Below are positions 2,593 through 25,320 of a DNA stretch of 64,000 bases, one piece after another. How positions within the stretch are numbered: the stretch's first letter is position 1; every line of letters starts with the position of its first letter. The DNA comes from a bacterium. Lineage in GTDB: Bacteria > SAR324 > XYD2-FULL-50-16. Under the pieces are notes generated by a model that saw only the letters and a list, made by a program, of their open reading frames with translations, ran no database searches and was not told the origin of the DNA. The stretch covers positions 1 through 64,000 of the forward strand of contig JAVVEA010000006.1 of NCBI GenBank assembly GCA_032250835.1, given 5' to 3'. Position numbers and translations under genes: made by a program.

Positions 2593-2879
2593 AAGCTAAG
2601 TCTACTCAGGTTGATTATGCGAATATAACGATGCGGTATCTTACCCTGCCCCATGCTGAAAGAAAAGCCCCTTTTCATAAGAGATTCTATAAAAAAGCAG
2701 GAATCTTTAGGGGCTTTGCCAAAAAGCTCAATCTGTTGGGGTTGTTGATTGGCGGGTACGGGGCTTGTTGGGGTATACAAAATGGGGTAGGTAAGGGTTA
2801 CCGCTTCAAAACGGGTCCTTTGCCCAAGTTGAACCCTGTTGAGCGGCCCGTTGACGCTCTGTCATTACCCCTTGGAAGC

Positions 2880-4412: not shown

Positions 4413-4493
4413 ACAATATTTAAAAATCCGTATAAACTGAAGCCAAGGTTGTTATCTAAGATCACCGCGAATTCGCCCTTTCCTGATATACCC

Positions 4494-7219: not shown

Positions 7220-7221
7220 CC

Positions 7222-8142: not shown

Positions 8143-8156
8143 TCCAAAGAGGAATC

Positions 8157-8684
8157 ATGTCGAACAAAGAAATCACGGCCCAACCCTATTGGCCTAACCT
8201 GCTGGCCGGAATCGGCCTGGGATTGGTTTTGTTGATGGCCTATTACATTGCCGGGCGCGGCTTGGGCGGCTCTGGTGCGGTGACCCGCGTCGGTGCGGGG
8301 CTGCTGAATCTGGTCGCCCCGGAACATACCGGGGGCCTCGAATACTTTTCCCGCTATATCCGAGAAGGCAAGGTCAGTCTGAACGACTGGTTGGTCTTCC
8401 AGACCATCGGCGTCTTCTTTGGTGGCTTTGTCGCCGCCATGACCGCCGGTCGCTTCGGCAAGACCATCGAACATGGCCCCCAAATCACCGCCAAGCAACG
8501 CTTGGGCTGGGCTTTGTTGGGGGGGATTATTATGGGCATCGGGGCGCGGATCGCGCGCGGGTGCACCAGCGGTCAAGCCTTATCGGGCGGAGCTACCATG
8601 GCCCTAGGCAGTTGGGTCTTTATGCTGATGCTCTTCGCTGGGGGGTTCCTGGCGGCTATCTTTTTTAAGAGGTTGTGGCTATGA
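8157..8684 (+). CDS. YeeE/YedE sulfur (thiosulfate) transporter family
   Basis: GGIIMGIGARIARGCTSG motif; hydrophobic. Confidence 0.9.
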   Translation: MSNKEITAQPYWPNLLAGIGLGLVLLMAYYIAGRGLGGSGAVTRVGAGLLNLVAPEHTGGLEYFSRYIREGKVSLNDWLVFQTIGVFFGGFVAAMTAGRFGKTIEHGPQITAKQRLGWALLGGIIMGIGARIARGCTSGQALSGGATMALGSWVFMLMLFAGGFLAAIFFKRLWL

Positions 8685-9277
8685 ACGAGATCGTCGCGCC
8701 TTTGGCTAAAACCGGCTATTTGGGGCCGGAAATTAATTTGGTCTTCGCCATGCTGATCGGCGTGGGCTTTGGGTTCTTTTTAGAACGCGGCGGTTTCGGC
8801 TCGTCACGCAAGCTCACCGCCCAGTGGTTCGGCAAGGATTGGAGCGTCTTTCGGGTGATGTTCAGCGCCATTGTGGTCGCGCTCTTCGGCATCGTCTTTT
8901 TAGACCTCTTGGGGCTCATGCCCTTTGAGCGGCTTTACTTGAACCATACCTACTTGGTGCCCCAAATCTTAGGTGGATTGATGATGGGTGCGGGGTTTGT
9001 GATCGGTGGTTACTGCCCCGGTACGAGCTTTGTGGGCTTTGCTTCGGGTAAGTTGGACGCCTTGGTTTACATCATCGGGTTGTTGCTGGGTTCCGTCTTC
9101 TTTGGCGAAGCCTATGACCTCTTTGCGCCGATCATGGAGATGGGCGATATGGGGAATATTACGCTGCCCGAGTTTTTTGGACTGCCTGCTTTGGTGGTGG
9201 GGCTGATGGTTTTAGCTCTCGCCGCAGGTGGCTTTTGGGCCGCAGCTAAGGTGGAAAACCTCGTTAAGGACAAATAA
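8681..9277 (+). CDS. YeeE/YedE sulfur transporter family, second subunit
   Basis: GVGFGFFLERGGF and GGYCPGT motifs; ATGA overlap with previous gene. Confidence 0.9.
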   Translation: MNEIVAPLAKTGYLGPEINLVFAMLIGVGFGFFLERGGFGSSRKLTAQWFGKDWSVFRVMFSAIVVALFGIVFLDLLGLMPFERLYLNHTYLVPQILGGLMMGAGFVIGGYCPGTSFVGFASGKLDALVYIIGLLLGSVFFGEAYDLFAPIMEMGDMGNITLPEFFGLPALVVGLMVLALAAGGFWAAAKVENLVKDK

Positions 9278-9280
9278 ACG

Positions 9281-9877
9281 ATGAACCTTTCGCCAGACTA
9301 CAAATGGGTATTGCCCGGCTTTGGCCTGCTGATTTTGGTGGCCATCGCGCTGACGAATTATAAAGGTCCGGCTCCTTGGTATGCTTCGGTAGAAGACTAC
9401 CAAATCAGCCAGATTTCGCCTGCTGAATTGGCCCGCTGGATCGTCGAAGGGCGCAACGACTTTTTGGCCGTGGCCGTCGGGGATTCTGAAGAGCTGAACA
9501 CCATTCCGGGTTTGATCCGGGTTGCCAACCAAGAAGAACTGGCAGCGGCACTCAAAAAGTACCCGAATTATAAAAAGTGGGTGATCTTAAACAACGGCAG
9601 CCCGTTGTCTCCGGAAATGGCCCAAATGGCCACCCAGGACTGGGAACGCCGCGTGATCCTGCTCAAAGGGGGCGTACCCCAGTGGCAGGCGAGGATCGGC
9701 GCAGAAGAACTAGATTGGAGCCAGATTCCAGCTGAAGAAACGGCGGAACTCAAAGAAGTCCGCGCCTTCTTCCACCAGGGTGGTGCTGCGGAAGCGGAGC
9801 AATATGTGGCCCCTAAACCGGTGGTGATGCCTTTCTTGGCCGACCTACCACCGCCGCCGAAAGCCGAGGGCTGCTAG
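9281..9877 (+). CDS. membrane-anchored degenerate rhodanese-fold protein with a single C-terminal Cys
   Basis: N-terminal TM helix; ISPAELARWI and ILLKGGVPQW rhodanese motifs; ends PPPPKAEGC. Confidence 0.7.
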   Translation: MNLSPDYKWVLPGFGLLILVAIALTNYKGPAPWYASVEDYQISQISPAELARWIVEGRNDFLAVAVGDSEELNTIPGLIRVANQEELAAALKKYPNYKKWVILNNGSPLSPEMAQMATQDWERRVILLKGGVPQWQARIGAEELDWSQIPAEETAELKEVRAFFHQGGAAEAEQYVAPKPVVMPFLADLPPPPKAEGC

Positions 9878-9975
9878 CCCAGCTTTGGCGATTCGGGCCG
9901 GTTGAACCCGGCCCATACCTTAGGCCCTAGAGGGGGAGGCGGGGTCTACTTCTATATCTGGATTTTCAGGAGGTT

Positions 9976-11286
9976 GTGATGATCCCATTTTCCTTTTCTA
10001 GGCAGTTCTTGCTTCTGTTGGTGGGCCTTTTTTGGGCCAGCAGTTCGACCCTCTGGGCCGAGCAGTTTAAAGGTAAGATCACCTCGATCTCCAAAAAAGC
10101 GCAGGTGATCCAGCTCAAGGTGGGCAAGGAAACCCGCGCGGTTAAGTATTCTGCCGACACCAAGTGGGTCCAGGCCAGCTCCATCAAAGACCTGATCGTT
10201 AACGACAGCATTGTGGTGGACGCTGAGCCCGGTCAGGCGGCCAAACAGATCGAACGTAAGGTCGTTAAGCTGCCCAAGGGCTGGCTGATCGAGCGCGAAG
10301 AGTTGCAACAGTTGCTTGCCAAAGGCCAAGCAACTATGATTGATTCGCGCCCTCCTGCCCGCTACAACGAAGGCCACATCCCTGGGGCCTTGGGCATCTT
10401 CGCTGATCACTTGGCCAAAGATCCTAGCCTTTTACCATCTGATAAGAATGCGCTGTTGGTCTTTTATTGCGGTGGCCTGACCTGTGGCTTGAGCCCTAAA
10501 TCGGCCAAAATTGCCGCCAAGGCGGGCTATAAAAACTTGCGGGTCTATTCGGCAGGTATGCCCGACTGGAAAAAGGCCGGATTACCCGTTGAGGTCAAAG
10601 CCGCTTGGCTGGCCAAGAACCTAGGGTCCCATCTGGTGGTGCTCGACGCACGCGAACCGGCGGCCCAACAGGCCGGACACATCAAGGGGGCGGTAGGCCA
10701 GACACCAACGCAGATGGCCGCCTTAGACCAAGATTTTGCCGCTAAGAAGCTGCCTGGGGATCAGTGGAGATTGCCGGGCCTAGCGGACAAAGGTGCTTTG
10801 GTGGTGGTGTACAGCGACCAATATGCCGACCCCGCCGCCCAGTATGCCTTTAAGTACCTTAAGCGCTGGCAGTACAAAAACCCGGCGATCTTGGCCGAAG
10901 GCTTTGCGGGCTGGGAAAAAGCTGGATTCCCGGTCCAAACCGGGGCGACCGCGACGGTGGCCCGATATGTAAAGAAATTGGCACCTGGGGCGATACCTGT
11001 AGCAAAATTCAAGAGCCAAGTTGCCGCTGGGGTAACCGTTTTGGATGTGCGTGAAGACAGCGAAGTCCAAGCCGGGGCGATCAAAGGCTCCATCCATATG
11101 CCCTTGAGTCAGTTGGATGCAGGCCTAGCTAAACTGGACAAAACCAAACCCTTGCTGATCCATTGCAGCACCGGCGTACGCGCTGAAATGGCCTATCAGA
11201 CCTTAAAGAAACAAGGCTTTAAGCAGGCTCGTTTTTTAAACGAAACGATCAACATCAACTCGGACGGAAGTTTTAACATCGAGTGA
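9976..11286 (+). CDS. exported triple-domain rhodanese/sulfurtransferase
   Basis: Signal peptide; GHIPGA, GHIKGA, GAIKGS; loops YCGGLTC and HCSTGVR; middle domain lacks Cys. Confidence 0.9.
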   Translation: MMIPFSFSRQFLLLLVGLFWASSSTLWAEQFKGKITSISKKAQVIQLKVGKETRAVKYSADTKWVQASSIKDLIVNDSIVVDAEPGQAAKQIERKVVKLPKGWLIEREELQQLLAKGQATMIDSRPPARYNEGHIPGALGIFADHLAKDPSLLPSDKNALLVFYCGGLTCGLSPKSAKIAAKAGYKNLRVYSAGMPDWKKAGLPVEVKAAWLAKNLGSHLVVLDAREPAAQQAGHIKGAVGQTPTQMAALDQDFAAKKLPGDQWRLPGLADKGALVVVYSDQYADPAAQYAFKYLKRWQYKNPAILAEGFAGWEKAGFPVQTGATATVARYVKKLAPGAIPVAKFKSQVAAGVTVLDVREDSEVQAGAIKGSIHMPLSQLDAGLAKLDKTKPLLIHCSTGVRAEMAYQTLKKQGFKQARFLNETININSDGSFNIE

Positions 11287-11323: not shown

Positions 11324-11684
11324 CCTATCCCCACTCTGGGGAAATTGCCGCAGGTTTATTTTCTTATATAAGTTGTTAACTCGATCTTAATTTAAGGAAA
11401 AAACCGTTTATTTGGCCGTTATCTGATCTTCTTATCAACAAAGCAAACTCGACAAGCCGCCGATTTTTCTCTGAATTGTAGTTTTTTATTTGATAAAAAA
11501 CAGTCGGATAGGCATACGTGACCGGAACGTAATATTCAAATGATGCAATAAAAAAATTGGGGTCAACGCTATATTTTTTTGACATTTATTTTTTTTTGGC
11601 GTTAAACTCGGGCCAAATTTTCTATTGTTTTCCTGTCAACCCGGAGCGGTCCGGGCACAATCAACCATAAACCCGTGGGGTTCT

Positions 11685-12914
11685 ATGAAGAAACTTTTGA
11701 TCTTGGGTGCCGGATGCGCCGGCACCATGGTGGCCAACAAGTTACGCAAACGCCTGGACGAGAACGAATGGTCCATCACCATTATCGACAAAGACGATAA
11801 ACACATCTACCAGCCCGGCCTGTTGTTTGTGCCCTTTGGTGTCTACCAGCCTAAAGACGTGGTCCGCTCTCGCACCGAGTTCATCGGCAAGGGGATCAAA
11901 TTTGTCCAGGCCGAGATCACCAAGATGGACCCTAAAGGCCAAAAGGTTGAGACCACTGCAGGAAATTTCGATTACGACAAAGTGATCGTCGCTACCGGTG
12001 TCTACATCAACCCCGAAGAGGTTGACGGCTTGATGGAAGGCTGGGGCAAAAACGCCTTTGACTTCTATACCTTAGAAGGCGCTACGGCGCTTTCAAAAGC
12101 GCTGCGCGAGTTCCAGGGCGGCAAGTTGGTCTTGGATATCGCCGAGATGCCCTTTAAGTGCCCTGTGGCTCCTCTTGAATTCGTTTATTTGGCTGATTGG
12201 TACTTCACCGAGCGCGGCATCCGTGACAAAGTAGAAATCCGCCTAGTCACCCCGCTGCCCGGCGCGTTCACCAAGCCGAAGGCGACCGCTTTCTTCACCG
12301 AGTTGATCGAGAAGAAAAACATCAAGATCACCCCCAACTTCGATCTGATGGAAGTGGACTGTAAGGGGCAGAAGATCATCGCCGCCAACGGTGCCGAAGA
12401 GCCCTTCGACTTATTGGTTTCCATCCCGCCGAACCTGGGCGCTCGTTTCTTGGTTGAGTCCGGCGTGTCTTTGGACGAAGTGGGTTACGTCAACACCGAC
12501 AAAAACACCCTCAAGGCCGCTAACCACGACAACATGTTTGTCGTCGGCGACGGTTCGAACCTGCCCACCTCTAAGGCTGGTTCGGTGGCCCACTTCTCGG
12601 CTGAAGTGATGGTAGAAAACTTCATGCGTGAAGTACATGGCGAGCCGCTCAAGCCTGAGTTCGACGGCCATGCAAACTGCTTCATCGAGACGGGCTTCGA
12701 GAAAGCCGCTTTGATCGACTTTAACTACGACTTTGAGCCGCTGCCCGGCAAGTTCCCCCTTCCCGGCCTGGGCCCCTTCTCTTTGTTGCAGGAATCTAAG
12801 GCAAACCACTGGGGCAAGTTGATGTTCAAGTGGGTCTACTGGAACAAGCTGATCACTGGCGACGAGCTGCCGCTGGAAGCACAACTGAACCTGGCTGGTA
12901 AACTGCAAGACTAG
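11685..12914 (+). CDS. sqr: sulfide:quinone oxidoreductase-like flavoprotein (type III/SqrC-like)
   Basis: GAGCAG FAD loop; YQPGLLF; FKCPVAP and HANCFIE cysteines; WGKLMFKWVYW C-terminal helix. Confidence 0.85.
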   Translation: MKKLLILGAGCAGTMVANKLRKRLDENEWSITIIDKDDKHIYQPGLLFVPFGVYQPKDVVRSRTEFIGKGIKFVQAEITKMDPKGQKVETTAGNFDYDKVIVATGVYINPEEVDGLMEGWGKNAFDFYTLEGATALSKALREFQGGKLVLDIAEMPFKCPVAPLEFVYLADWYFTERGIRDKVEIRLVTPLPGAFTKPKATAFFTELIEKKNIKITPNFDLMEVDCKGQKIIAANGAEEPFDLLVSIPPNLGARFLVESGVSLDEVGYVNTDKNTLKAANHDNMFVVGDGSNLPTSKAGSVAHFSAEVMVENFMREVHGEPLKPEFDGHANCFIETGFEKAALIDFNYDFEPLPGKFPLPGLGPFSLLQESKANHWGKLMFKWVYWNKLITGDELPLEAQLNLAGKLQD

Positions 12915-12925
12915 GAGGTCTGTCC

Positions 12926-13636
12926 ATGACGAACGAAGAAAAAATCCTCGCTAAGCTCGATGAGCTGACCGAGGCCGTCGCCGAGGCTCGGCGCGCCGTT
13001 CGCCCCATGTCGGACCTGAAGAAGGACATGGAGCCGGTGATGCGCCAGCTGGTGGATGAGGCCATCTCGAAGCTGGGCGGCGTGAATGTCGATGCAGAAG
13101 ACGTGGGTCGTCTGGTCGGTGCTACGTTAGGCTCCGCTGGTAACCTCGCCGAAGGGGTGAAAACCCTGAACGCTTTACTGGACCTCAAACAAGACATGGT
13201 GCCGGTCACCAAGCAGGCCTTTAACGAGATCATCCATGGGTTGGACTCAGTAGGCCATGGCTTTGACTCAGACGCTCTGTTTTTGCTCCTGCGCCAGACG
13301 GTACTTAACTTAGGCAACTTGGCCGAAGGCTTAAAGACCCTTAATGCGGTAATGGAATTCAAGGAAGACGCTTCGGACATCTCCAAAATGGCGATGGACA
13401 TGGCGATCGACCAGCTAGAATCCCTCAAGCAGAAGGGCGTCTTTGAAGGTTTGGCCAACTTGGCTACGGTGGGCGAGAAATTGGCCGGAGCGGCTAAAGA
13501 CCTGGATTTTTCTCAGGTCAAGCCGATCACTGGGGTCTTTGGAATGCTCGGAGCGCTTAAGGACCCCAAGGTCCAAAAGGGCTTGGGCGTGGCCATCTAT
13601 ATGGCCGGTCTTTTGGGTGCCGTCGCCGAAGATTAA
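12926..13636 (+). CDS. DUF1641-family helical protein
   Basis: C-terminal KPITGVFGMLGALKDPKVQKGLG signature; follows sqr; AGGAGG RBS. Confidence 0.85.
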   Translation: MTNEEKILAKLDELTEAVAEARRAVRPMSDLKKDMEPVMRQLVDEAISKLGGVNVDAEDVGRLVGATLGSAGNLAEGVKTLNALLDLKQDMVPVTKQAFNEIIHGLDSVGHGFDSDALFLLLRQTVLNLGNLAEGLKTLNAVMEFKEDASDISKMAMDMAIDQLESLKQKGVFEGLANLATVGEKLAGAAKDLDFSQVKPITGVFGMLGALKDPKVQKGLGVAIYMAGLLGAVAED

Positions 13637-14032: not shown

Positions 14033-14269
14033 TTATTTGACTTGGATCCACCAAAGATACTCGCCACCGGCTTCTTCGGTTTTTAAGATCGGGTTGCCGG
14101 TGCGCTCGCTCCAAGAGGGCATATCTTTGTTTGAGCCTGGATCGGTGCAAACCATTTTAAGCACTTGGCCGCTGGTCATGGCCTGAACCGCTTTCTTGGT
14201 TTTCAGTACCGGCAGCGGGCAGCCGAGCCCGCGGCAGTCCAATTCTTGATCTACTTTGATGTCGTTCAT
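14033..14269 (-). CDS. tusA: TusA sulfur carrier
   Basis: LDCRGLGCPLP and TDPGS motifs; start at MNDIK. Confidence 0.95.
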   Translation of the reverse strand: MNDIKVDQELDCRGLGCPLPVLKTKKAVQAMTSGQVLKMVCTDPGSNKDMPSWSERTGNPILKTEEAGGEYLWWIQVK

Positions 14270-14300
14270 CGTTAATCCTGGTTGGTAAGTTGGTACGCGA

Positions 14301-14810
14301 TTAGATAAATAGTTGAATATCTGCTTCTGCGGCAAAATCCAAGAAGTTGGCCGCTCCTGCGTATTCGATGCCTTCGATAAAGTCTTCTTTCTTGAAGCCA
14401 AAGACGTCCATGGTCATTTGGCAGGCGATATACTCCACGCCTACATCCGTACAGAGTTCGCGCAGCTCTTCGATAGTGGCGACGCCGTGTTTTTTGAAGG
14501 TTTGTTTCATCAAGTTGGTTGCCACGGATTCGAAACCGGGCACACCAGCCATCAAGGCGTTGGGGATCGGCCAGTTGATCTTTTGGAACCATTCGGGACC
14601 GAAGGGCATAGCCATCGGCATCGAGGGGTTCCCCAAAGGAGAAACCTGAGCCTCGATCTTCTGCTTAAGCAGCGGGAGGCCGTAAAAGGTGAAAAAGATT
14701 TTCACTTCCATATCCATCGCCGCAGCGGCGCTGGCCAGGATAAAGGGCGGATAGGCCCAATCCAGGGTGCCCTTCGAAGCGATCAGGGCCATTTTTTTCG
14801 GCTCAGCCAT
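14301..14810 (-). CDS. dsrE2: DsrE2-family sulfurtransferase
   Basis: KGTLDWAYPPFILAS, FFTFYGL, IACQMTMD. Confidence 0.9.
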   Translation of the reverse strand: MAEPKKMALIASKGTLDWAYPPFILASAAAAMDMEVKIFFTFYGLPLLKQKIEAQVSPLGNPSMPMAMPFGPEWFQKINWPIPNALMAGVPGFESVATNLMKQTFKKHGVATIEELRELCTDVGVEYIACQMTMDVFGFKKEDFIEGIEYAGAANFLDFAAEADIQLFI

Positions 14811-14834: not shown

Positions 14835-15128
14835 TTAAAGCCAGGCGTTCACCTGGTGGGTTTCGACTAATTCAACAAAACCATCATAGTCGATTTGAGT
14901 AACCCCTTCGACTACCCGCCGGATGCCGCGCGCGGCTAAGTCACCGGCTAGGGCGTATACGGGGTTGTTATTCATAGCCCCGGTAAGGGCTGATTCGAAC
15001 TTCGAGCCTGCCTGTGCAGCCAAAACGCCGTCTTCAATCAGCAGTAGCGGATCGTTGGCTTGGACGCAGCGCAAGGCATGCTCTAAGCTGTCTGACGAAA
15101 AGGGTGACTTGTTGATCGTATGTAACAT
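14835..15128 (-). CDS. dsrH: DsrH/TusB
   Basis: MLHTINKSP, LLIEDGV, DLAARG, IDYDGFVEL. Confidence 0.95.
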   Translation of the reverse strand: MLHTINKSPFSSDSLEHALRCVQANDPLLLIEDGVLAAQAGSKFESALTGAMNNNPVYALAGDLAARGIRRVVEGVTQIDYDGFVELVETHQVNAWL

Positions 15129-15143: not shown

Positions 15144-15512
15144 TTAGTGCGGGACAATCACATCTTGCTGGCTCATCAGCTGGCCGATGGCCGCTGAATC
15201 CAGCACCTCGACCTCGACAAAGAGGTCCTCTTCGCTCAGTCCGCGCTCTTCTAAGGACTGTTTGTCAGTATACAGCTTTTCTACGTCATAGTCTTCTAAA
15301 ACCCCCAGGGTTTTCATGAAGCCTTTGATGCCGATCCCGGCGGTGTCTTGGTCTTTCATTAGGTTAAAGACCCCGTCGCCCATGAAACACATGCTGATGT
15401 CTTGGTCGTAGGCGGCCATGATCAAGACCATCTCTAGACCTTCGTAGGCGTAGATCGTACCGTGCGGTGCTTTGCGGACCACGTGCATAATTTTTTTAAC
15501 GTCTTCGCTCAT
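15144..15512 (-). CDS. dsrF: DsrF/TusC
   Basis: RKAPHGTIYAYEGLE, FMGDGVF, SLEERGL. Confidence 0.95.
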   Translation of the reverse strand: MSEDVKKIMHVVRKAPHGTIYAYEGLEMVLIMAAYDQDISMCFMGDGVFNLMKDQDTAGIGIKGFMKTLGVLEDYDVEKLYTDKQSLEERGLSEEDLFVEVEVLDSAAIGQLMSQQDVIVPH

Positions 15513-15520
15513 GTTTGCCT

Positions 15521-15877
15521 CTAATCGCCAAAGGTTACCAACCGGTCAACCCGGATGGCGATGTCGGTCAGTTGGCCTAGACCGGTGATGGTAGCCCCTT
15601 CAAGTAGGACCTCTTCGTTGATGCCGCGGCGCTTGGCGGCAGCAATGCAGGAAAGGATTTCCACCCCTTCTTTGGCCAACTCGGTCCAACGAGCGCCCAC
15701 ATGGCGGTCGTCTTGGGGCGGGTCCATATGTTTGGTGGCATTGTTCACGCCATCGTTGTATAAGAAGACGGCTTCTACTTCATGGCCGCGTTTTCGGGCG
15801 GCTTGTATAAAGTGATAGGCCGTGTCGGCGGCTTGGTGGTTATAGGGGCCTTCCTTTAGGAGAATGCCAATTTTCAT
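15521..15877 (-). CDS. dsrE: DsrE/TusD
   Basis: EGPYNHQA, FLYNDGV, active Cys in SCIAAAKRRG, GLGQL; start at MKIGIL. Confidence 0.95.
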   Translation of the reverse strand: MKIGILLKEGPYNHQAADTAYHFIQAARKRGHEVEAVFLYNDGVNNATKHMDPPQDDRHVGARWTELAKEGVEILSCIAAAKRRGINEEVLLEGATITGLGQLTDIAIRVDRLVTFGD

Positions 15878-16127
15878 CTGTTCCCTCTTGAGCAGGTGGG
15901 GTTTCATTCCCTTACCAGAGTATATGTATATGGGAATATGCCATTGGTCCGGTATTTTGGTTTTACCCTTACAGAAAGTCAAATTATTTTCAAAAATTTT
16001 TTCTTTCAAGCAGCGGAATTTCTTGTTTTCCCTGATCAGGCCCGAATCCCGATCAGTTTACCAACTTAAGAATCAACCGAATCACCTTTGACGGGTCTGT
16101 AGTCCCCTAGCAGCCATTTTTTTTTGT

Positions 16128-16156
16128 TTGACAGCCTACAAACCCTCTGGTAGTCC
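16128..16156 (+). promoter_or_regulatory. candidate sigma70 promoter of the second molybdoenzyme operon
   Basis: TTGACA 16128-16133, 17-nt spacer, TG-G-TAGTCC as a weak extended -10. Confidence 0.45.
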
Positions 16157-16268
16157 TGCTATGTCTAAATATTCAAATATCGCTACATAGCGGACCCCCA
16201 GCCGGGGACGCTATAGCGTGGCCCCCCTTGGGAAACCATCACCCCAAAAGCCCCTAGTAGAGGAGCCC

Positions 16269-17831
16269 ATGAACTACGGCTTTTTGATCAACAACTCGAA
16301 ATGCATCGGCTGTCACGCCTGTTCGACGGCCTGCAAGAGTGAAAACCAAGTTGCCTTGGGTGTGTTCCGCACCTGGGTGAAGTACACCGAGGTGGGCAAC
16401 TACCCGAACGTGAAACGCAACTTCCAGGTGAACCGCTGTAACCACTGCGCAAATCCCCCCTGTGTGGAGATTTGCCCGGTTACGGCCATGCACCAGCGCG
16501 AAGACGGCATCGTCGGTTACGACTCGGATCTTTGTATTGGTTGTAAGTCCTGCATGCAGGCCTGCCCCTACGATTCGATCCACATCGACCCGGTCACCAA
16601 GACCGCCCAGAAGTGTCATTATTGTGCGCACCGGGTGGAAAACGGGATGGAGCCTTCTTGCGTGGTTGTCTGCCCGCAGCATGCCATTGTGGCAGGCGAC
16701 CTGGACGACCCCAACAGTGAGTTGTCCAAAGAGATTGCCAAGAACGCGGTCACCGTCCGCAAGCCCGAACAGGGCACGGGCCCCAAGCTCTTTTACGTAG
16801 ACGGGCACCAAGCCGCCTTGACCCCCATGGTCACCGAAGGCCGCTCGAAGCATTTTATTTGGGGCGACGTGGTCAGCGAGAAGTTGACCGACGCCCACAT
16901 CCCCGAAGAGCCGGTATTGTACTTCGGCCAGGGTGAACAGATGGTCCAGACCACCTTCAATGCCCAGCACAAGGTGCCCTGGCATTGGCAGGTTCCGGCC
17001 TACTTGACCACCAAGGGCATCGCTTCGGGTGCCTTTATGTTGATGGCCGCGTTCAGCATTTACGGCTGGGGCGGCGCGCACCATGCCTTGGGTGCCGCCA
17101 GTAAGCTGACTGCTGGTTTCTTGGCTGTGGTCTTCTCACTGCTGACCACGGTCTTCTTGGTTTGGGACTTAGACCGACCCGAGCGTTTTTTAAGGGTGAT
17201 CTTGCGGCCCCAGTTTAAATCTTGGCTGGTACGCGGTGCCTTTATCTTGATTGGCTTCTCCAACTTGGTGGGCCTTTGGTGGGTCGTCGAACTGGCGGCC
17301 AGCCTGGGCTTTATCGAGGCCACCCCGGTTTGGTTGGAAGCTCTGGCTATTTATTTGGGCTTCCCGCTGGCCATTGGGGCGGCTATTTACACCGCCTTCT
17401 TGTTTGGTCAGGCCGAAGGGCGCGACTTTTGGCAGAGCCCTCTGCTCCCCTTCCACTTCTTGACCCAGGCTATTATGGCCGGGGGTGCCGGTTTGCTGGT
17501 CGCCAATCAAGTGGTGGCTTTGGACCCCGCTTTCGCTTCGGTGGCGGCTCATGCCTTTACTCTGGGCTTGGCAGTGAACCTGATGATGATCCTGCTCGGT
17601 GAATTCGGCATGAAGCACCAGACCGAAACGGCAAGTGCCGCGGCGCATATGATCACCAAAGGTGAGTTTAAGAACCTCTTCTGGGGGGGTGCGATCCTCC
17701 TGGGGAACTTGGTCCCCTTCGCTTTGGCTCTAGCGGGCTTTAGCGTACCGGCGGCCCTGTTGGCCCTGGTGGGCCTTTATATTTACGAGCACGTCTTCGT
17801 GCTGGCACCCCAAAAAGTTCCCAATAGCTAG
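16269..17831 (+). CDS. fused 4x[4Fe-4S] domain + NrfD/PsrC membrane domain
   Basis: CIGCHAC, CNHCANPPC, CIGCKSC, KCHYC followed by WHWQVPAYL, DLDRPERF, YTAFLF; start MNYGF after AGGAG. Confidence 0.9.
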   Translation: MNYGFLINNSKCIGCHACSTACKSENQVALGVFRTWVKYTEVGNYPNVKRNFQVNRCNHCANPPCVEICPVTAMHQREDGIVGYDSDLCIGCKSCMQACPYDSIHIDPVTKTAQKCHYCAHRVENGMEPSCVVVCPQHAIVAGDLDDPNSELSKEIAKNAVTVRKPEQGTGPKLFYVDGHQAALTPMVTEGRSKHFIWGDVVSEKLTDAHIPEEPVLYFGQGEQMVQTTFNAQHKVPWHWQVPAYLTTKGIASGAFMLMAAFSIYGWGGAHHALGAASKLTAGFLAVVFSLLTTVFLVWDLDRPERFLRVILRPQFKSWLVRGAFILIGFSNLVGLWWVVELAASLGFIEATPVWLEALAIYLGFPLAIGAAIYTAFLFGQAEGRDFWQSPLLPFHFLTQAIMAGGAGLLVANQVVALDPAFASVAAHAFTLGLAVNLMMILLGEFGMKHQTETASAAAHMITKGEFKNLFWGGAILLGNLVPFALALAGFSVPAALLALVGLYIYEHVFVLAPQKVPNS

Positions 17832-17839
17832 GAGAGACC

Positions 17840-20773
17840 ATGAACCAGAAAGTTGACAAGCACGCTCAAGAGGTCCCCCAGTTCACCGACAGCAACCGGG
17901 AACCGATCAAAATGACCCATGTTCAGCACCCCGACGGGCGCATGAGCAGCTATCCCCCAGAAGAGCATTGGGACGATTGGGTTGAATACGACAGCCGTTC
18001 TTGGCCCAGAAAAGTGGCCAAAAACTACCGCTTGGTGCCGACCATCTGCTTTAACTGCGAGTCGGCCTGTGGTTTGATGGCCTACGTAGACAAAACCAAC
18101 TACGAGATCCGTAAATTCGAAGGCAACCCGGTGCACCCCGGCTCTCGTGGCCGCAACTGCGCCAAGGGCCCGGCGACCCATAACCAGATCTACGACCCCG
18201 AACGCATCCTTTATCCTTTAAAGCGCGTCGGTAAGCGCGGTGAAGGCAAATGGAAGCGGATCACCTGGGACGAGGCTTTAGACGAAATCTCGGAAAAAAT
18301 GCGCGAGTCCCGCAAGAAGCGGCTCGACGGTATTATGTACCACGTCGGCCGCCCTGGCGAGGACCACTACACCAACCGCGTGATCAAGGCTTGGGGCACC
18401 GACAGCCACAACAGCCACACCAACATCTGTTCGGCTGCGGCCCGCTCGGGTTATTTCCAGTGGTCCGGTTTCGACCGGCCCAGCCCGGACTACGCGGCGG
18501 CCAAGTGTATCCTGCTGATCAGCTCGCACCTAGAGACGGGCCATTATTTTAACCCCCACGCCCAGCGGATTATGGAAGGGGTGCAGAATGGGGCCAAGTT
18601 GATCACCATGGACCCACGGCTTTCGAACACTGCGTCCAAGTCGAGCACCTGGCTGCCCGCATGGCCCGGTTCAGAGCCGACCATCCTGCTGGCCATTGCC
18701 AACTTCTTGATCCAATCGGGCCGCTACGATAAAGACTTTGTGCGCCGCTGGGTTAACTGGGAAGAGACGCTGCAAGCCTTTGTGGGCACCTCGGCCGCCG
18801 AACTGGCCGAAAGTGACGAAGCCAAGGCGCTGCAAACGGCACTGAAGGGCAAAAAAGAGTTTGTCTTTGATGACTTCGACGCCTTCATGAAGGTCACCTA
18901 TGGTGAGTTTACCTTCGAGCGCGCCGCTAAGGAAAGCGAACTGCCCATTGAAAAAATCATCGAAGCCGCCGACGCGGTGGCCGACTGCAATGGCCGTTTG
19001 GCGACCCACGTTTGGCGCGCCGCCTCGATGGCCCACTTAGGTGGCTGGCAGGTAGCCCGGACCCTGTTGTTCTTAAACGTCTTGACCGGCTCGATCGGCA
19101 CCGAAGGCGGCACCAGTGGCAACAGCTGGAACAAGTTCGTACCCAAGCCCTTTAAGAGCCCCGGCGACTTTACGGCCTGGAACGAATTGCAGATGCCCCA
19201 CGAGTGGCCCATGAGCTTCTACGAGATGTCCTTTATCTTGCCGCACTTCTTAGAAGAAGGCCGCGGCGAGATCGACGTCTATTTCACGCGGGTCTACAAC
19301 CCCATGTGGATCAACCCTGATGGCTTTATGTGGCTCAAGGCCCTTAAAGACGAAGAGAAGATGAAGTGCCATGTCGCCTTGACCCCTACCTGGAACGAGT
19401 CGGCTTGGTTTGCGGACTACATCTTGCCGATGGGTCATTCCGGCGAGCGCCACGACTTGATGTCCCAAGAAACCCACCGGGGCAAATGGATTGGCTTCCG
19501 CCAGCCGGTCCGCCGGGTGGCCATGGAAAAAGACGGCCAGAAGATCCACCGCACCTATGAAGCCAACCCCGGCGAAGTCTGGGAAGAAGCAGAATGGTGG
19601 GTAGATGTGACTTGGCGGATGGACCCCGATGGTTCTTTGGGTATCCGCCAATGGGTGGAATCGACCCAAAATCCCGGCCAACCGGTAACCCAGGACGAAT
19701 ATTGGGGCTGGCTCTTTGAGAACAGCGTACCCGGTTTGCCTGCTAAAGCCAAGGAACAGGGCTTGAGCCCCTTGGAGTACATGCGCAAGTATGGCTGTTT
19801 CGAGATCGAACAAGACATCCTGACGCCTTACGAAAAGGGCGTGGACGATGCGGGCTGCAAGGTAGACGAGGCCGGGCGGATCAAAGACGCCGCTGGTGCC
19901 GTTAAGGGCGTGATGATCGACGGCCAGGCGAAAGCGGGCTTTAACACCCCTTCGAAGAAGTTGGAATTTTATAGCCCCACCATGCACCAATGGGGTTGGA
20001 CCGAGAAAGAATACACCATTCCCTGGCAGCTCAAGAGCCACGTCCACCAAGACGAGATCGACCGGAGCAAGGGCATGATGATCTTACTGCCCAACTTCCG
20101 TTTGCCCACGTTGATCCACACCCGCAGTGCCAACGCCAAGTGGCTTTATGAGATCAGCCACAACAACCCGCTTTGGATCCACCCGAGCGATGCTAAGCGC
20201 ATTGGGGTCAAGTCCGGCGAGTTGGTGCGGGTTGAGACCGAGATCGGCTACTTTGTGGATAAAGCCTTTGTGACCGAAGGGATCAAGCCCGGCGTGGTCG
20301 CTTGTTCGCACCACTTGGGCCGCTGGAAGCTGAACGAGTCGGGCCCCGGCCTAGGCTCTGGCTTTGCTTCGGTGGTGGACCTTAAAGAAGAGCCCAATGG
20401 CGAGTACCGCTTGAGCATCAAAAAGATGGGTGGGCCTTGGAAGTCTTGGGACCCCGACACCTCCCGGGTTTGGTGGGAAGATGTGGGGGTGAACCAAAAC
20501 CTAACCCATGCCGCCCAGCCGGACCCCGTTTCGGGCGCTCATTGCTGGCACCAGAAGGCCATGATGGTCAAAAAGGCGGAGGCCAGCGACTCCTATGGAG
20601 ACGTTTGGGTGGACACCAACAAGTCCATGGAAGTTTACCAGAAGTGGGTCGGTTTGACCCGCTCTTGCGTAGACCACAGCCCCGACGGCACCCGCCGTCC
20701 TATGTGGTTCAACCGCCCCTTGCACCCCACCAAGGAATCTTACAAGATCCCTGAAAAACCCTTCGGGCGCTGA
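17840..20773 (+). CDS. Mo-bisPGD oxidoreductase without signal peptide (Psr/Ttr/Sre/Soe-related)
   Basis: CFNCESAC...CAKG FS0 motif; HNSHTNICS Cys-ligand region; ADYILP; no twin-arginine motif. Confidence 0.85.
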   Translation: MNQKVDKHAQEVPQFTDSNREPIKMTHVQHPDGRMSSYPPEEHWDDWVEYDSRSWPRKVAKNYRLVPTICFNCESACGLMAYVDKTNYEIRKFEGNPVHPGSRGRNCAKGPATHNQIYDPERILYPLKRVGKRGEGKWKRITWDEALDEISEKMRESRKKRLDGIMYHVGRPGEDHYTNRVIKAWGTDSHNSHTNICSAAARSGYFQWSGFDRPSPDYAAAKCILLISSHLETGHYFNPHAQRIMEGVQNGAKLITMDPRLSNTASKSSTWLPAWPGSEPTILLAIANFLIQSGRYDKDFVRRWVNWEETLQAFVGTSAAELAESDEAKALQTALKGKKEFVFDDFDAFMKVTYGEFTFERAAKESELPIEKIIEAADAVADCNGRLATHVWRAASMAHLGGWQVARTLLFLNVLTGSIGTEGGTSGNSWNKFVPKPFKSPGDFTAWNELQMPHEWPMSFYEMSFILPHFLEEGRGEIDVYFTRVYNPMWINPDGFMWLKALKDEEKMKCHVALTPTWNESAWFADYILPMGHSGERHDLMSQETHRGKWIGFRQPVRRVAMEKDGQKIHRTYEANPGEVWEEAEWWVDVTWRMDPDGSLGIRQWVESTQNPGQPVTQDEYWGWLFENSVPGLPAKAKEQGLSPLEYMRKYGCFEIEQDILTPYEKGVDDAGCKVDEAGRIKDAAGAVKGVMIDGQAKAGFNTPSKKLEFYSPTMHQWGWTEKEYTIPWQLKSHVHQDEIDRSKGMMILLPNFRLPTLIHTRSANAKWLYEISHNNPLWIHPSDAKRIGVKSGELVRVETEIGYFVDKAFVTEGIKPGVVACSHHLGRWKLNESGPGLGSGFASVVDLKEEPNGEYRLSIKKMGGPWKSWDPDTSRVWWEDVGVNQNLTHAAQPDPVSGAHCWHQKAMMVKKAEASDSYGDVWVDTNKSMEVYQKWVGLTRSCVDHSPDGTRRPMWFNRPLHPTKESYKIPEKPFGR

Positions 20774-21669
20774 TGGATTTTGTGAGCCAAATCGGGGTCT
20801 TGGTGCCCATGCTGACCGGTGAGATGGGCCTCGCCCAGCTCACCGCAGTTCGCCAGCACGAGTCCTTAGGGCCCGCGCTGGCCAACCACTATGGCCATCG
20901 ACCCGACGCGGAGTTGCTCGACGAGCTGGGCGCGGACCACTACCACCTTTTCGGGCTGGAGGTCTTCCCCTATGCTTCGGTGTTCTTTAACGAGAATGCC
21001 CATATGGGGGGCGTTTTGCCCGGACAGGTTGCCGAATTTTACGCACTGCGCGGCTTAGAGCGGCCCAGCGAGCCGGACCATTTGGGCCGTGAGTTGGCGC
21101 TCTTGGCTAATCTGGTGGAAGCAGGCGACGAGAAGGCCACGGCCAGCTTCTTCTGGCGCTACCTGATGAGTTGGTACTTTCCCTTTGCCGAGGCCGTCAA
21201 AGCACTGCAACACCCCTTTTATAATGCCCTCTTCGACCAGCTCGAAAGCCTGCTGGCCGTCTTGGGAAGTCAATTAGAGCCGATCCCGGCCCAGATCGAA
21301 GAGCCCGAGGCCGAGCCTTTAGAAGCGCTGGACCAACAAGAAACGGGTATCGGCGACATCAGCGAGTTTTTGTTGGCCCCCCGCTTGGCGGGCTTCTTTT
21401 TGAGCCGCACGGCCCTAAAAGAAATGGGCGAACGGATCGACATGCCCACCGGCTTCGGCACCCGCAGCACCCTGCTACCGCAGATCTTTTACACCGCCGT
21501 AGACTACGACCGCCTCCCGGCGCTCTTAGAAGAACTAGACCGCATCGCCGCCGCACAGCAAGAACGGTACAATGCCTTGGCCCAAGGGTGGCCGGGGATG
21601 CTGGACTATTGGCTGGGCCGCGTAGCCGTGATCCGTGCGATGCTCTCTAAGATGAAGGCGGCGGTTTAG
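20773..21669 (+). CDS. TorD/DmsD-family maturation chaperone
   Basis: PYASVF and EPDHLGREL motifs; follows the Mo enzyme. Confidence 0.85.
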   Translation: MDFVSQIGVLVPMLTGEMGLAQLTAVRQHESLGPALANHYGHRPDAELLDELGADHYHLFGLEVFPYASVFFNENAHMGGVLPGQVAEFYALRGLERPSEPDHLGRELALLANLVEAGDEKATASFFWRYLMSWYFPFAEAVKALQHPFYNALFDQLESLLAVLGSQLEPIPAQIEEPEAEPLEALDQQETGIGDISEFLLAPRLAGFFLSRTALKEMGERIDMPTGFGTRSTLLPQIFYTAVDYDRLPALLEELDRIAAAQQERYNALAQGWPGMLDYWLGRVAVIRAMLSKMKAAV

Positions 21670-22053
21670 GCTTTTACGATTCAAAGCCAGTTTTTTCCAT
21701 ATTCCATAGCAACAATTTTGGATGTGCGGCATACAAATCTAAATCTATCATCATAGAATCATCCTCCTCGTAGAACCCTACTGGCTGCGCAACATTCGAA
21801 TTTTCCATGTTAGATTTAAATCGACACACTTCGTTATGGTACTGGGCGGCCCAAAAGTATTTCGAATAAGTTGAAGGGATGGCCTTAAAACTCCTTAAGC
21901 CAGCTTCAATTTGCAATCTGTGGGCAACGAGAGCCGTTTCAAGGGAACCTTCGTAACGAAAACTAAGATAATTCTAACCTTTGCAATATTCATAGCCTAG
22001 AAAAACACCTGGAAGCGCTGGATTTTGGGTGCCTTGCCCCGGTCTAGTCTAAC

Positions 22054-22233: not shown

Positions 22234-22986
22234 CTAACCCCAAACCAACTTGCGGGCCAGGAACAACACCGCTGTGCCCAGGATCAGCGCCATCAAACGC
22301 TGCATCCAGACCTTCGGCAGTTTGCCTGCGCCCCAGTAAGAACCAATGAACCCCCCGACCAGCACCGACAGCGCCAACGGCCAATAGGGCAGCAGGTCAA
22401 CCGGCTGGTGGGTCAATCGGGCCGTTAGGGCCGTCACCGAATTGACCCAGATGAAGACCGCCCCGGCTGCGGCGGCTTCCTTGGCATGGCCCAAACCTAA
22501 CAACAAGATCGCCGGGACCAGATAGACCCCCCCTCCATTGCCCAGCGCACCAGCCAACCAGCCCAGCAGCGCGCCCAAAGCCAGCTGCATAGGTAACTTG
22601 AGCCCCACCGGGGCTGGTTTAGGCTCCTGGCCCCCTTGCCGCAGCAGCAGAACCAACAAAACCGCCAGACTGACCAGCAGCAACCAGTAGAACCACTCCT
22701 CCGGCAAGGGGACGGCCCCGCCCCCATAAGCGAAAGGGATCGAAAGGGCTAATACCGGCAGAATCAACCGGGCCCGTAGGTGCCCCTGGCGGATGAAGTT
22801 GGTCGCCCCCATGCTGGTGACGATCAGATTCAACGCCAAGGTCAAAGCCGGAATCTCCAAGTAGCCATAACCCAAGATAGCCATCAAGGCTGTATAAGAC
22901 GAACCGCCCCCCATGCCCACCGAGCTATAGGCCAGGGCGATCAGGAAAAACAAGGCAGAGGTGAGGAGGAGTTGGCTTAGGTCCAT
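22234..22986 (-). CDS. tauE: TauE/SafE sulfite exporter family
   Basis: YSSVGMGGGSSY and GNGGGVYLVP repeats; ~8 TM helices. Confidence 0.9.
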   Translation of the reverse strand: MDLSQLLLTSALFFLIALAYSSVGMGGGSSYTALMAILGYGYLEIPALTLALNLIVTSMGATNFIRQGHLRARLILPVLALSIPFAYGGGAVPLPEEWFYWLLLVSLAVLLVLLLRQGGQEPKPAPVGLKLPMQLALGALLGWLAGALGNGGGVYLVPAILLLGLGHAKEAAAAGAVFIWVNSVTALTARLTHQPVDLLPYWPLALSVLVGGFIGSYWGAGKLPKVWMQRLMALILGTAVLFLARKLVWG

Positions 22987-23640: not shown

Positions 23641-25320
23641 TTAAGTCATGTCGATCATGGCACAGGGGCACTCATCGGCGCACTTCTTACAGCCGATGCA
23701 CTTGTCCCAAATAAAGGAATAGTGACCGCCTTTAGGCAGCTTCTTGATGGCACCATCGCCACAGTAGCTCCAGCAGGTATCGCAGTCGAAGCAGTCGCCG
23801 CAGCTCATGCACCGGCTAGCTTCAAAGAGCAATTGCTCTTGAGTGAAGCCGGTTAGGTAGCCTTCGAAGCTGTTCATGCGCTTCTCGGGAGCCTCAACGG
23901 TGATTTCGTTGCGCGGAGCCTCGGGGTAGAAGTCCAATTTCATGCTCTTGTAGCTGACCACGTTGGGCTTGCCCTCGGGCTTTAAGGTCTCGCCGCGCAA
24001 GAAGGCGTCGATCTCCAAAGCAGCCTTGCGGCCATCGCCAAAGGCGTCGGTGACTAAGCCTAAGCGACGGATGATGTCGCCACCGGCCCAAACCTTACCG
24101 CCTTCTTCTAAGCGGCCATGTTCTTGAACCTGGGTCCAACCGTTCTCGGATTTAGCTTCTTCGATGCCGGTGTAATCGGGGGCTTGGCTGATCGCGGCGA
24201 TCATCAAACCACAATCGACGGTCATCTCGGTGCCCGGTAATTCGGTCACGATGGGCCAGCCGTTTTCGTCTTTCTCGCCCATTTCCACTTGCAGGAACTG
24301 AACGCCGGTAACTTTGCCGTCAGCGGTTTGGATCACCTTGGGGGTGAAGCCGGCGTGTAATTCAACGCCTTCTTCGGCTCCTTCGCGGATTTCTTCTTCG
24401 GTGGCAGGCATCAGCTCGCGGGTTTCGCGGCAGACCATGATCACTTCTTTGGCACCCAAGCGGCGGCAGGTACGGGCTACGTCATAAGCGACGTCACCAC
24501 CACCGATCACCAAAACGCGCTCGGGCATTTCGGGGGCTTTGCCTAGGTTTTGGGCTAACAAGAATTCCACACCGGCCCAGGCGTTTTCTGAGTCCATGCC
24601 TTCTAAGGGTAGCTTGCGGCCCGTCTGGGCACCGATAGCTACATAGACGGCATCGTACTTGGACTTCAGGTCTGCCATGCTGATGTCTTTGCCGATGCGG
24701 GTGTTGGGCTTGTAGTCCACACCTAGGTCAAAGATCCGCTGGATTTCGGACTGCAACACCTCGCGGGGGAGGCGGTAGCTAGGGATACCCCAGCGCAACA
24801 TACCCCCGGCCTCGGGTCGCTCGTCAAAAAGCGTCACGCCATGACCCCGGCGGGCCAACTGGTAAGCTGCCGAAAGTCCGGCAGGGCCCGCGCCGATCAC
24901 GGCCACGTTTTTGCCACTCATTTCTTCGGTCAGTTTGGTCAAGGCCAACTGGTTGCCCAGGGCGAAGTCGCCAATGGCCATCTCGACCCGGTTGATCGAA
25001 ACGGGGGAATCCTTTTGGCCCCGGTTACAGCCGGACTCGCAAGGATGGGGGCAGACCCGGCCCATGGTGGCGGGCAGCGGGTTTTTGTCGGTCAGCCGCT
25101 CAAAGGCCATTTTGGTGGCCATCTCCTGGCTACGACCATATTCGTCGGCCTGGGCGATCAGCGTTAAATATCCCCGAATGTCCTCGCTACTGGGGCACGA
25201 GTCCGTACAGGGCGGGGTCTTGGTATTGTACAGCGGCAGCTGGCTGCTTTGTTTTTTCTTACCCACGCCAGGGGGCTGGGCGCGCACGGAGCGCTCGATT
25301 CTGCGAACTACGATAGGCAT
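23641..25320 (-). CDS. dsrL: DsrL iron-sulfur flavoprotein (NAD(P)H:acceptor oxidoreductase)
   Basis: PPCTDSCPSSEDIRGYL, GRVCPHPCESGCNR, GAGPAG, GGGDVA; C-terminal 2x[4Fe-4S] CMSCGDCFDCDTC/CIGCKKCADECPC; dsrEFH nearby. Confidence 0.85.
   Translation of the reverse strand: MPIVVRRIERSVRAQPPGVGKKKQSSQLPLYNTKTPPCTDSCPSSEDIRGYLTLIAQADEYGRSQEMATKMAFERLTDKNPLPATMGRVCPHPCESGCNRGQKDSPVSINRVEMAIGDFALGNQLALTKLTEEMSGKNVAVIGAGPAGLSAAYQLARRGHGVTLFDERPEAGGMLRWGIPSYRLPREVLQSEIQRIFDLGVDYKPNTRIGKDISMADLKSKYDAVYVAIGAQTGRKLPLEGMDSENAWAGVEFLLAQNLGKAPEMPERVLVIGGGDVAYDVARTCRRLGAKEVIMVCRETRELMPATEEEIREGAEEGVELHAGFTPKVIQTADGKVTGVQFLQVEMGEKDENGWPIVTELPGTEMTVDCGLMIAAISQAPDYTGIEEAKSENGWTQVQEHGRLEEGGKVWAGGDIIRRLGLVTDAFGDGRKAALEIDAFLRGETLKPEGKPNVVSYKSMKLDFYPEAPRNEITVEAPEKRMNSFEGYLTGFTQEQLLFEASRCMSCGDCFDCDTCWSYCGDGAIKKLPKGGHYSFIWDKCIGCKKCADECPCAMIDMT

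Follow-up and report, generated by a model that had tools for sequence, protein, structure and literature searches.

A predicted cytoplasm-facing molybdoenzyme with a fused FeS-NrfD subunit, encoded divergently from dsrEFH in a SAR324-phylum genome, as a probable sulfite:quinone oxidoreductase of the PSRLC3 / psrBC-psrA family

Introduction

The last intermediate of cytoplasmic sulfur oxidation, sulfite, is toxic and needs to be removed, and a 64,000-nucleotide stretch of DNA from a bacterium of the SAR324 phylum (GenBank assembly GCA_032250835.1, contig JAVVEA010000006.1, positions 1 to 64,000 of the forward strand; hereafter the window) raises the question of whether one of its molybdoenzymes serves this purpose. 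The enzyme is encoded by a three-gene operon at 16269-21669, transcribed divergently from dsrEFH, in which an iron-sulfur (FeS) subunit B and an NrfD-type membrane anchor C are fused into a single protein (BC), followed by a catalytic molybdopterin subunit (A) and a TorD/DmsD-type chaperone. An earlier note, made from the DNA letters, had described it as a cytoplasm-facing molybdoenzyme of an unassigned type and had proposed a distinct sulfite/sulfur:quinone oxidoreductase handling the products of the Dsr pathway. The analysis presented here addresses to which family the enzyme belongs, which side of the membrane it faces and what its substrate could be. It is assigned to the cytoplasm-facing PSRLC3 / psrBC-psrA family rather than to a new type, and the oxidation of sulfite at the expense of quinone is, judged on sequence and genomic context, its probable function.

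Organization of the operon

The elements of the operon are as follows.

16269..17831, plus strand: fused FeS/NrfD electron-transfer and anchor subunit (BC), 520 amino acids; Pfam Fer4_11 and related FeS domains, NrfD
17840..20773, plus strand: catalytic molybdopterin (bis-molybdopterin guanine dinucleotide-type) subunit A, 977 amino acids, without a twin-arginine translocation (Tat) or Sec signal; Pfam Molybdop_Fe4S4, Molybdopterin and Molydop_binding
18047..18070, plus strand: FS0 cluster motif C-x2-C-x3-C, residues 70-77 of A; regular expression on the translation, with Molybdop_Fe4S4 at residues 65-119
18407..18433, plus strand: presumed Mo-ligand region HNSHTNICS, residues 190-198 of A; motif position
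20773..21669, plus strand: redox-enzyme maturation protein of the TorD/DmsD/NarJ family, 298 amino acids; PF02613, 37.8 bits (cut-off 22.2)
21669..21698, plus strand: terminator-like hairpin with a T-run that would close the operon; consensus match only

The open reading frame (ORF) listed for BC spans 16218-17831, and its true start was taken as the ATG at 16269, because this codon is preceded by a GAGGAG ribosome-binding site and coincides with the conserved start MNYGF of the homologues. An 8-nucleotide gap containing a GGAGA ribosome-binding site separates the BC stop from the start of A, while the stop codon of A shares the sequence TGATG with the start codon of the chaperone gene, implying translational coupling. 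The same layout with fused BC before A was observed in 11 of 13 related loci, the contigs of the remaining two starting inside A. Identity of A reaches 75-82% in the nearest public loci (Candidatus Lambdaproteobacteria and SAR324 metagenome-assembled genomes), and locus identity amounts to 66-69% in Chloroflexota and Bacteriovoracaceae and to 54% in one Phycisphaerales locus. This retention of identity across relatives, along with a ligand-region motif common to all 119 best homologues of A, indicates that the operon is not a chance arrangement. The earlier description of a signal-less A carrying HNSHTNICS, a fused B-C gene placed first and a 298-residue TorD-like chaperone was thus borne out in all its parts.

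Catalytic subunit and family assignment

In the search for homologues of A at least 8000 scored candidates passed, the best 120 of which are full length with 66-82% identity. Every one of the 119 best homologues carries the motif HNSHTN[IVL]C[ST], and only one of them contains an RR motif within its first 45 residues. The cysteine of HNSHTN[IVL]C[ST] is presumed from its position in the alignment to be the Mo ligand. Psr/Phs-like representatives mostly carry NHTSICE-type motifs in this region. None of the NCBIfam models reaches its cut-off for A; the best is PhsA (NF012032, 208.7 versus 694 bits), and the scores also remain below the curated equivalog cut-offs of TtrA (105.9 versus 1750), ArrA (108.3 versus 1600), DmsA-type (174.6 versus 777.7) and Fdh-alpha models (147.7 versus 666.25). 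The best solved relative is the PsrA of Thermus (2vpw), which matches with 153 bits over residues 61-325 only.

Named homologues of A were retrieved from Chloroflexi, Caldilineales, Rhodothermaceae, Chloroherpeton thalassium, Bdellovibrionales and others, under such generic names as "molybdopterin-dependent oxidoreductase", "formate dehydrogenase" and, in JGI annotations, "anaerobic selenocysteine-containing dehydrogenase". Homologues from Chloroherpeton thalassium (WP_012498676.1), Caldilineales and Caldilineaceae are 69-70% identical to A, and a plasmid collection yielded homologues with 48-55% identity in Thermomicrobium roseum, Rhodococcus jostii RHA1 and four haloarchaeal genera. The fused family is hence present in Chloroflexota, Actinomycetota, the SAR324 phylum and haloarchaea.

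In a quick maximum-likelihood tree of 31 rows, which carries support from the Shimodaira-Hasegawa-like approximate likelihood ratio test (SH-aLRT) only and holds no named SoeA, PsrA or PhsA row, the fused family together with a few Tat-bearing sisters is split from 15 Psr/Phs-like representatives by a branch of 1.15 with 100% SH-aLRT support. Within this tree the window A groups with proteins of Bacteriovoracaceae, Chloroflexia and Chloroherpeton (100% support), its identity to homologues from Chloroflexota, Bacteriovoracaceae and Chloroherpeton being 66-69%, and most other genomes of the phylum contain a form of A with 52-57% identity, which groups with haloarchaeal proteins (100% support). 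This distribution suggests two sequence subtypes of A and their lateral transfer. In the haloarchaeal/SAR324-phylum subtype (L023, L025, L031, L021, L022) the N-termini of A have in common the peptide ...P[ST].[IV]EK.A..LG[LI]I..., which lacks twin arginines and may represent either the remnant of a leader or a tail that binds a chaperone. The Tat-bearing sisters P0127, P0167 and P0155 retain an N-terminal YPPxExW, with SHTNICS kept in P0127 and P0167, and their existence implies that the family also has periplasmic members. A further group (P0124 and P0281-P0287) is of full length and has lost the presumed Mo-ligand cysteine, the motif region reading ALxxDxT...; its members may, on their sequences, be non-catalytic paralogues.

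Assignment to a described family follows from comparison with published operons. In the section of Wright et al. (2013) dealing with this format, a fused psrB-psrC gene located upstream of a Tat-less psrA is described under the label "polysulfide reductase" from Marine Group A and II fosmids, several green sulfur bacteria, Caldilinea aerophila and Haladaptatus (PMC3906813). A role in the oxidation of sulfite, derived from Dsr, has been proposed for the fused psrBC-psrA format of green sulfur bacteria in passages of three papers (PMC3906813, PMC6338057, PMC9324843), one of which states that PSRLC3 "is inferred to be sulfite oxidase" (PMC9324843), while a fourth paper counts "2 genes encoding PSRLC3" in the text concerned (PMC5473276). 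The window enzyme shares with PSRLC3 the two-gene core, with fused FeS-NrfD upstream of a signal-less A, and the presence where Apr is absent. It differs from PSRLC3 operons by the addition of a long TorD-type chaperone and by its position, divergent from dsrEFH-tusA and not inside a dsr operon. The original work on PSRLC3 of green sulfur bacteria is reportedly that of Frigaard and Bryant in 2008 and of Gregersen et al. in 2011. The probable sequence kinship with PSRLC3 was judged on the homologues named from Chloroherpeton thalassium, Caldilineales and Caldilineaceae. Thus, of the claim of an unassigned type, the part that concerns models stands, since no NCBIfam cut-off is reached, but the format itself had already been described as PSRLC3 / psrBC-psrA. 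The window enzyme is a clear, though unexceptional, member of the family; its particular features are the long chaperone and the divergence from dsrEFH-tusA. The genes CT0494-0496 (CT0494 being the tentative "FqoABC" of Calisto and Pereira) were also considered as PSRLC3 and were dropped, since a preprint, in the part that covers them, lists them as psrABC, three sulfide-induced genes.

Unfused relatives with 31-38% identity were observed on plasmids of Azoarcus sp. KH32C (L016) and Sulfurovum mangrovi (L017), where the gene order is B-C-A-TorD and the next gene encodes a 4Fe-4S protein of about 370 amino acids. On the Sulfurovum mangrovi plasmid the gene for A is split in two and lacks annotation.

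Orientation in the membrane

The N-terminal domain of BC holds four [4Fe-4S] clusters and is connected by a linker of about 40 amino acids to an eight-helix NrfD-type quinone-binding anchor. All 16 cluster cysteines are invariant in nine of nine aligned homologues. In a structure model of BC eight transmembrane helices were obtained, with the NrfD part mostly at a predicted local distance difference test (pLDDT) score of 70-94; since the model was built on a nine-row alignment and its FeS half lies below 50, only the helix boundaries were used. Neither BC nor A contains a twin-arginine motif or an N-terminal hydrophobic stretch in its translation.

When lysines and arginines of the loops were counted with these helix boundaries, 10 were located on the FeS side of the window BC and none on the opposite side. 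The same bias is found in nine of nine BC homologues, with 7-11 such residues on the FeS side and 0-2 on the far side, whereas two ordinary NrfD subunits of the same genome with Tat-bearing partners, taken as controls, gave 5 versus 8 and 5 versus 4. Because the signal-less FeS domain is covalently joined to the first anchor helix, the N-terminus of the anchor should be cytoplasmic. According to the relevant part of a review, both termini of PsrC are located on the P-side, beside PsrB, and an inverted anchor is expected for SoeC, so far as a hypothesis (PMC8076601). Taken together, the fusion, the charge bias and the PsrC topology imply that the B-C geometry is kept but flipped inward, so that the BC anchor is predicted to be inverted relative to PsrC and the enzyme to face the cytoplasm. 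The fusion hence constitutes sequence-level support for an inverted NrfD anchor. The cytoplasmic orientation put forward in the earlier note is thereby upheld, and prediction of the NrfD topology, which it had named as a check, placed the positive charges of the eight-helix domain on the FeS side. Its accompanying statement that some SreABC enzymes face the cytoplasm differs from that review, in which SreAB is assigned to the P-side (PMC8076601).

Association with cytoplasmic sulfur oxidation

The window genome (3.66 Mb, 97% complete) contains dsrA (559.7 bits), and neither aprA (best match 25 bits) nor ATP sulfurylase was found in it. A survey of the SAR324 phylum covered 79 genomes of at least 70% completeness, with the enzyme in 35, dsrA in 24 and aprA in 22. 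Among the 24 dsrA-positive genomes, nine have the enzyme only, 12 AprA only, three both and none neither (Fisher p = 3e-4, a value that treats kin genomes as independent, whereas about four or five independent switches are estimated). Twelve genomes contain both the enzyme and dsrA, and in six of them the two are no more than 15 kb apart on one contig. In two of the genomes (G022 and G024) the enzyme heads the dsr operon in the order BC-A-tusA-dsrN-dsrC-dsrA-dsrB-dsrL-like, and a third (G027) shows the order aprA-qmoA-like-BC-A-sat-tusA-dsrNCAB.

Of the 35 carrier genomes, 30 were surveyed for neighboring genes by tblastn; because the query set was limited, the counts are minimum values. At a distance of up to 8 kb from the enzyme TusA was detected in at least 11 genomes, a DsrE-family gene in at least 7, TauE in at least 6, dsrAB in at least 3, aprA in at least 2 and any sulfur gene in at least 19. 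In other phyla, sulfur genes occur at seven of nine loci with enough flank. Chloroflexia loci contain TusA-like, persulfide-dioxygenase-like metallo-beta-lactamase (MBL)-fold, rhodanese and YeeE genes; the Bacteriovoracaceae locus MBL-fold (persulfide-dioxygenase-like) and TauE genes; the locus on pRHL3 of Rhodococcus jostii DsrE, TusA, three persulfide-dioxygenase-like MBL-fold hydrolases and ArsR regulators; and the Halomicrococcus locus rhodanese, TauE and an anion permease. The Thermomicrobium locus has a CsoR-type regulator only and no sulfur gene was found at the Natrinema locus. According to the earlier note, a finding that homologues rarely lie near sulfur genes would have spoken against its proposal; proximity is instead common, in 19 of 30 phylum genomes and at seven of nine loci elsewhere.

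Proposed function and its alternatives

We favor the view, as the probable one on present sequence evidence, that the operon encodes a membrane-bound sulfite:quinone oxidoreductase of the PSRLC3 / psrBC-psrA family facing the cytoplasm. Sulfite is preferred as the substrate because it is what reverse-acting dissimilatory sulfite reductase (rDsr), persulfide dioxygenase, thiosulfate-acting rhodanese, TauE and the replaced Apr/Sat route have in common. In the scheme that we infer for substrate, direction of electron flow, quinone acceptor and the roles of chaperone and TauE, cytoplasmic sulfite would be released by reverse-acting DsrAB, fed by TusA, DsrEFH and DsrC, with rhodanese or organosulfonate reactions as possible further sources. 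Sulfite would be oxidized to sulfate at the Mo-bis(pyranopterin guanine dinucleotide) site of A, and two electrons would pass via FS0 and then through the four [4Fe-4S] clusters of BC to a quinone site in the NrfD anchor, which would lie upside-down as compared to PsrC; the resulting quinol would feed the respiratory chain. The TorD-type protein would mature A, and TauE would provide an export route for surplus sulfite.

Several observations weigh against this assignment. The enzyme is not tied to Dsr across the phylum, being present in 23 of 55 dsrA-negative as compared to 12 of 24 dsrA-positive genomes (p = 0.62), and three genomes carry it together with AprA. Eleven of the 30 surveyed genomes yielded no sulfur gene within 8 kb of the enzyme, which in at least four of them lies on a contig shorter than 7 kb. 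The best-scoring characterized relatives, PhsA and PsrA, act on S-S bonds, and the TusA, DsrE and rhodanese neighbors fit a sulfane-sulfur substrate equally well. The window genome also encodes a Tat-type SUOX-family protein, which with TauE could offer an alternative route of export followed by periplasmic oxidation of sulfite. Literature searches on the fused family retrieved no biochemical study and no assayed member. Hence, the earlier proposal of a sulfite/sulfur:quinone oxidoreductase handling Dsr products agrees with the genomic evidence in this lineage, but does not extend to the family as a whole, given its dsrA-negative carriers.

The alternative that fares best places the enzyme among Psr/Phs-type oxidoreductases, acting in the cytoplasm on polysulfide, persulfide or thiosulfate; quinol would then reduce the sulfane sulfur or thiosulfate delivered by TusA, DsrE or rhodanese. 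It draws on the fact that PhsA and PsrA provide the closest curated models and solved structures, on the detection of TusA in 11 and of DsrE in 7 of the 30 phylum genomes at distances of up to 8 kb, on the YeeE-type transporters and rhodaneses that flank Chloroflexota loci, and on the published annotation as Psr in the pertinent part of PMC3906813. We consider it unlikely, as the PhsA score (208.7) is far from the cut-off of 694, the family forms a separate clade on a long branch with 100% support and has a ligand motif of its own, and TauE and persulfide-dioxygenase-like neighbors indicate sulfite. Moreover, a sulfane reductase is not expected to alternate with AprA or to be placed between apr-qmo and sat.

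Slightly less probable still is that the enzyme oxidizes, with transfer of electrons to quinone, a persulfide or thiosulfonate bound to TusA or DsrE(FH) rather than free sulfite. Such a substrate would accommodate the location of tusA and/or dsrE adjoining BC-A in the SAR324 phylum, Chloroflexota and Rhodococcus, as well as the divergent promoter region that the window operon shares with dsrEFH-tusA; however, many members have no carrier gene nearby, and a shared pathway and shared regulation account for the adjacency as well. In addition, we know of no molybdoenzyme of this superfamily that uses a protein-bound substrate. Were it true, the enzyme would constitute a quinone-linked exit of the cytoplasmic sulfur relay, by a reaction undescribed for any molybdoenzyme. 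A non-sulfur substrate such as formate or an oxyanion (arsenite, selenate or nitrate), to which the name "formate dehydrogenase" of some homologues and the general architecture of complex iron-sulfur molybdoenzymes (CISM) could point, is highly improbable, since scores for Fdh-alpha, ArrA, TtrA and DmsA-type models remain far under their cut-offs, the neighbors are sulfur genes and not formate, arsenic or nitrogen genes, and the ligand cysteine of A is followed by serine where formate dehydrogenases have histidine.

Relation to SoeABC, PsrABC and PhsABC

With sulfite oxidation as the preferred reading, a close counterpart is SoeABC of Allochromatium vinosum and Aquifex aeolicus, a CISM molybdenum sulfite:quinone oxidoreductase whose A and B subunits are held to be cytoplasmic in the portions of two papers that treat it (PMC8076601, PMC8232776). 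The window enzyme resembles it in having an NrfD-type anchor, in the same proposed reaction and in the same place downstream of rDsr. SoeABC is encoded by three separate genes in the order A-B-C. Unlike in this arrangement, B and C of the window enzyme form one protein, encoded first. Among the best 150 representatives at 50% identity (at least 251 bits) no signal-less protein of about 950 amino acids was found outside the fused family, and no database name calls any of the named homologues SoeA. Two leads to SoeA were rejected: tblastn matches on Phaeobacter, Variovorax and Mesorhizobium plasmids proved to be unrelated single-subunit enzymes, and a search with the 40% identical representative P0124 returned the same broad family.

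PsrABC (Thermus thermophilus, PDB 2vpw-2vpz) and PhsABC are built from the same three modules as the window enzyme and share its cofactor-binding domains. They are exported by Tat and face the periplasm, in contrast to the window enzyme with its lack of a signal, inverted anchor, different ligand motif and separate clade.

At the level of the family, we see about an even chance that the fused enzymes represent an independent lineage, far wider in distribution than proteobacterial SoeABC, and are the "missing" cytoplasmic sulfite oxidizer of Chloroflexota, Actinomycetota, the SAR324 phylum and haloarchaea. This bears on surveys that are limited to SoeABC, SorAB, SUOX and Apr/Sat, which can come out nearly empty of direct sulfite oxidizers; the pertinent passage of one such survey, for instance, reports almost no direct sulfite oxidizers and abundant sulfite-producing persulfide dioxygenases (PMC12345210). 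If sulfite oxidation is correct, the fused family closes this gap in many phyla and belongs in marker sets of the sulfur cycle.

The chaperone

The structure model of the 298-residue chaperone has a mean pLDDT of 88.9, and Foldseek matched it over about 200 columns to DmsD (3efp/3cw0), 1s9u, YcdY and NarJ, with probability 1.00 and target TM-scores of 0.63-0.71 for DmsD, 1s9u and YcdY, in agreement with the all-helical fold of redox-enzyme maturation proteins. It is about 100 residues longer than DmsD, and its C-terminal half is conserved, with invariant residues up to W280 in 10 homologues. A TorD-type gene was detected beside the enzyme in only 6 of 30 phylum genomes, all belonging to the window's own family. 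Alignment of the N-termini of A in the chaperone-linked subclade revealed no conservation. A gene for an Mrp/NBP35 ATPase, in place of a TorD-type one, follows A in Rhodococcus (L015, 10802-11971), Natrinema (L021, 9897-11057) and one phylum genome (G014, L050).

The divergent region and neighboring genes

The genes on both sides of the operon and the region that separates it from dsrE are the following.

14033..14401, minus strand: tusA, sulfur carrier; Pfam TusA at residues 53-120, the listed ORF probably being too long at the 5' end
14835-15128, minus strand: dsrH; Pfam DsrH, TIGR03011 at 100.8 versus 49.2
15144-15512, minus strand: dsrF; TIGR03010 at 134.4 versus 94.15
15521-16009, minus strand: dsrE; Pfam DsrE, TIGR03012 at 115.3 versus 89.25
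16010..16268, no strand: divergent intergenic region between dsrE and BC, a shared promoter region
22234..22986, minus strand: TauE/SafE-family membrane protein (sulfite-exporter family); PF01925 at 82.7 bits
23073..23561, minus strand: single-domain rhodanese; Pfam
23641..25320, minus strand: DsrL-like NAD(P)H oxidoreductase, GltD-type with FeS domains; Fer4_20, Pyr_redox_2 and Fer4_10, NF009410 at 624 versus 516 bits

The divergence from dsrEFH and the nearby tauE, both pointed out before, are thus confirmed by the TIGR03012, TIGR03010 and TIGR03011 models and by Pfam. These three models describe TusD/DsrE, TusC/DsrF and TusB/DsrH, respectively, and do not discriminate between Dsr and Tus; the genes are read as Dsr because dsrAB is present in the genome and tusA and a dsrL-like gene are located nearby. 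The name DsrL-like was given because of this context and because the protein encoded after dsrB in relatives (L023) has the same domain set. The ORF listed for dsrE probably starts too far upstream, its Pfam match beginning at residue 45.

In the divergent region the block TTTGACAG at 16127-16134 is kept in three of three aligned regions. Two palindromes of the form CGCTA(N0-2)TAGCG, at 16181-16192 and 16209-16218, are spaced 28 bp apart, two matches as compared to 0.08 expected in the window, and none was found in the same region of the loci L001 and L011.

Other sulfur and molybdopterin genes

Other molybdopterin proteins of the genome are a Tat-bearing CAB-type protein, a NapA-like Tat protein, an ACIII-type protein and the PhsA-like protein of the window. 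The last belongs to a second sulfur module at 2631-11286, composed of a multiheme cytochrome c, the PhsA-like catalytic subunit (398.8 bits, under the 694 cut-off) and separate FeS and NrfD subunits, along with two half-size YeeE-type transporter genes, an ORF without a Pfam match and a triple rhodanese. Elsewhere in the genome, a periplasmic CISM cluster (G000:C38:172030-176873) has the order NrfD, Tat-bearing catalytic subunit, FeS subunit and TorD-like protein, and the Tat-type SUOX-family protein (PF00174, 181.6 bits) is part of a sox-like cluster (G000:C5:65106-70929), the other members of which are named by their N-termini only. Within the window, a type III sulfide:quinone oxidoreductase is encoded directly before a DUF1641 protein at 11625-13636, and the pair recurs in L001 at 83% and 57% identity. 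The oxidoreductase scores 642.9 versus 525 bits with NF049943, a model of the "selenoprotein subtype", yet its ORF is uninterrupted.

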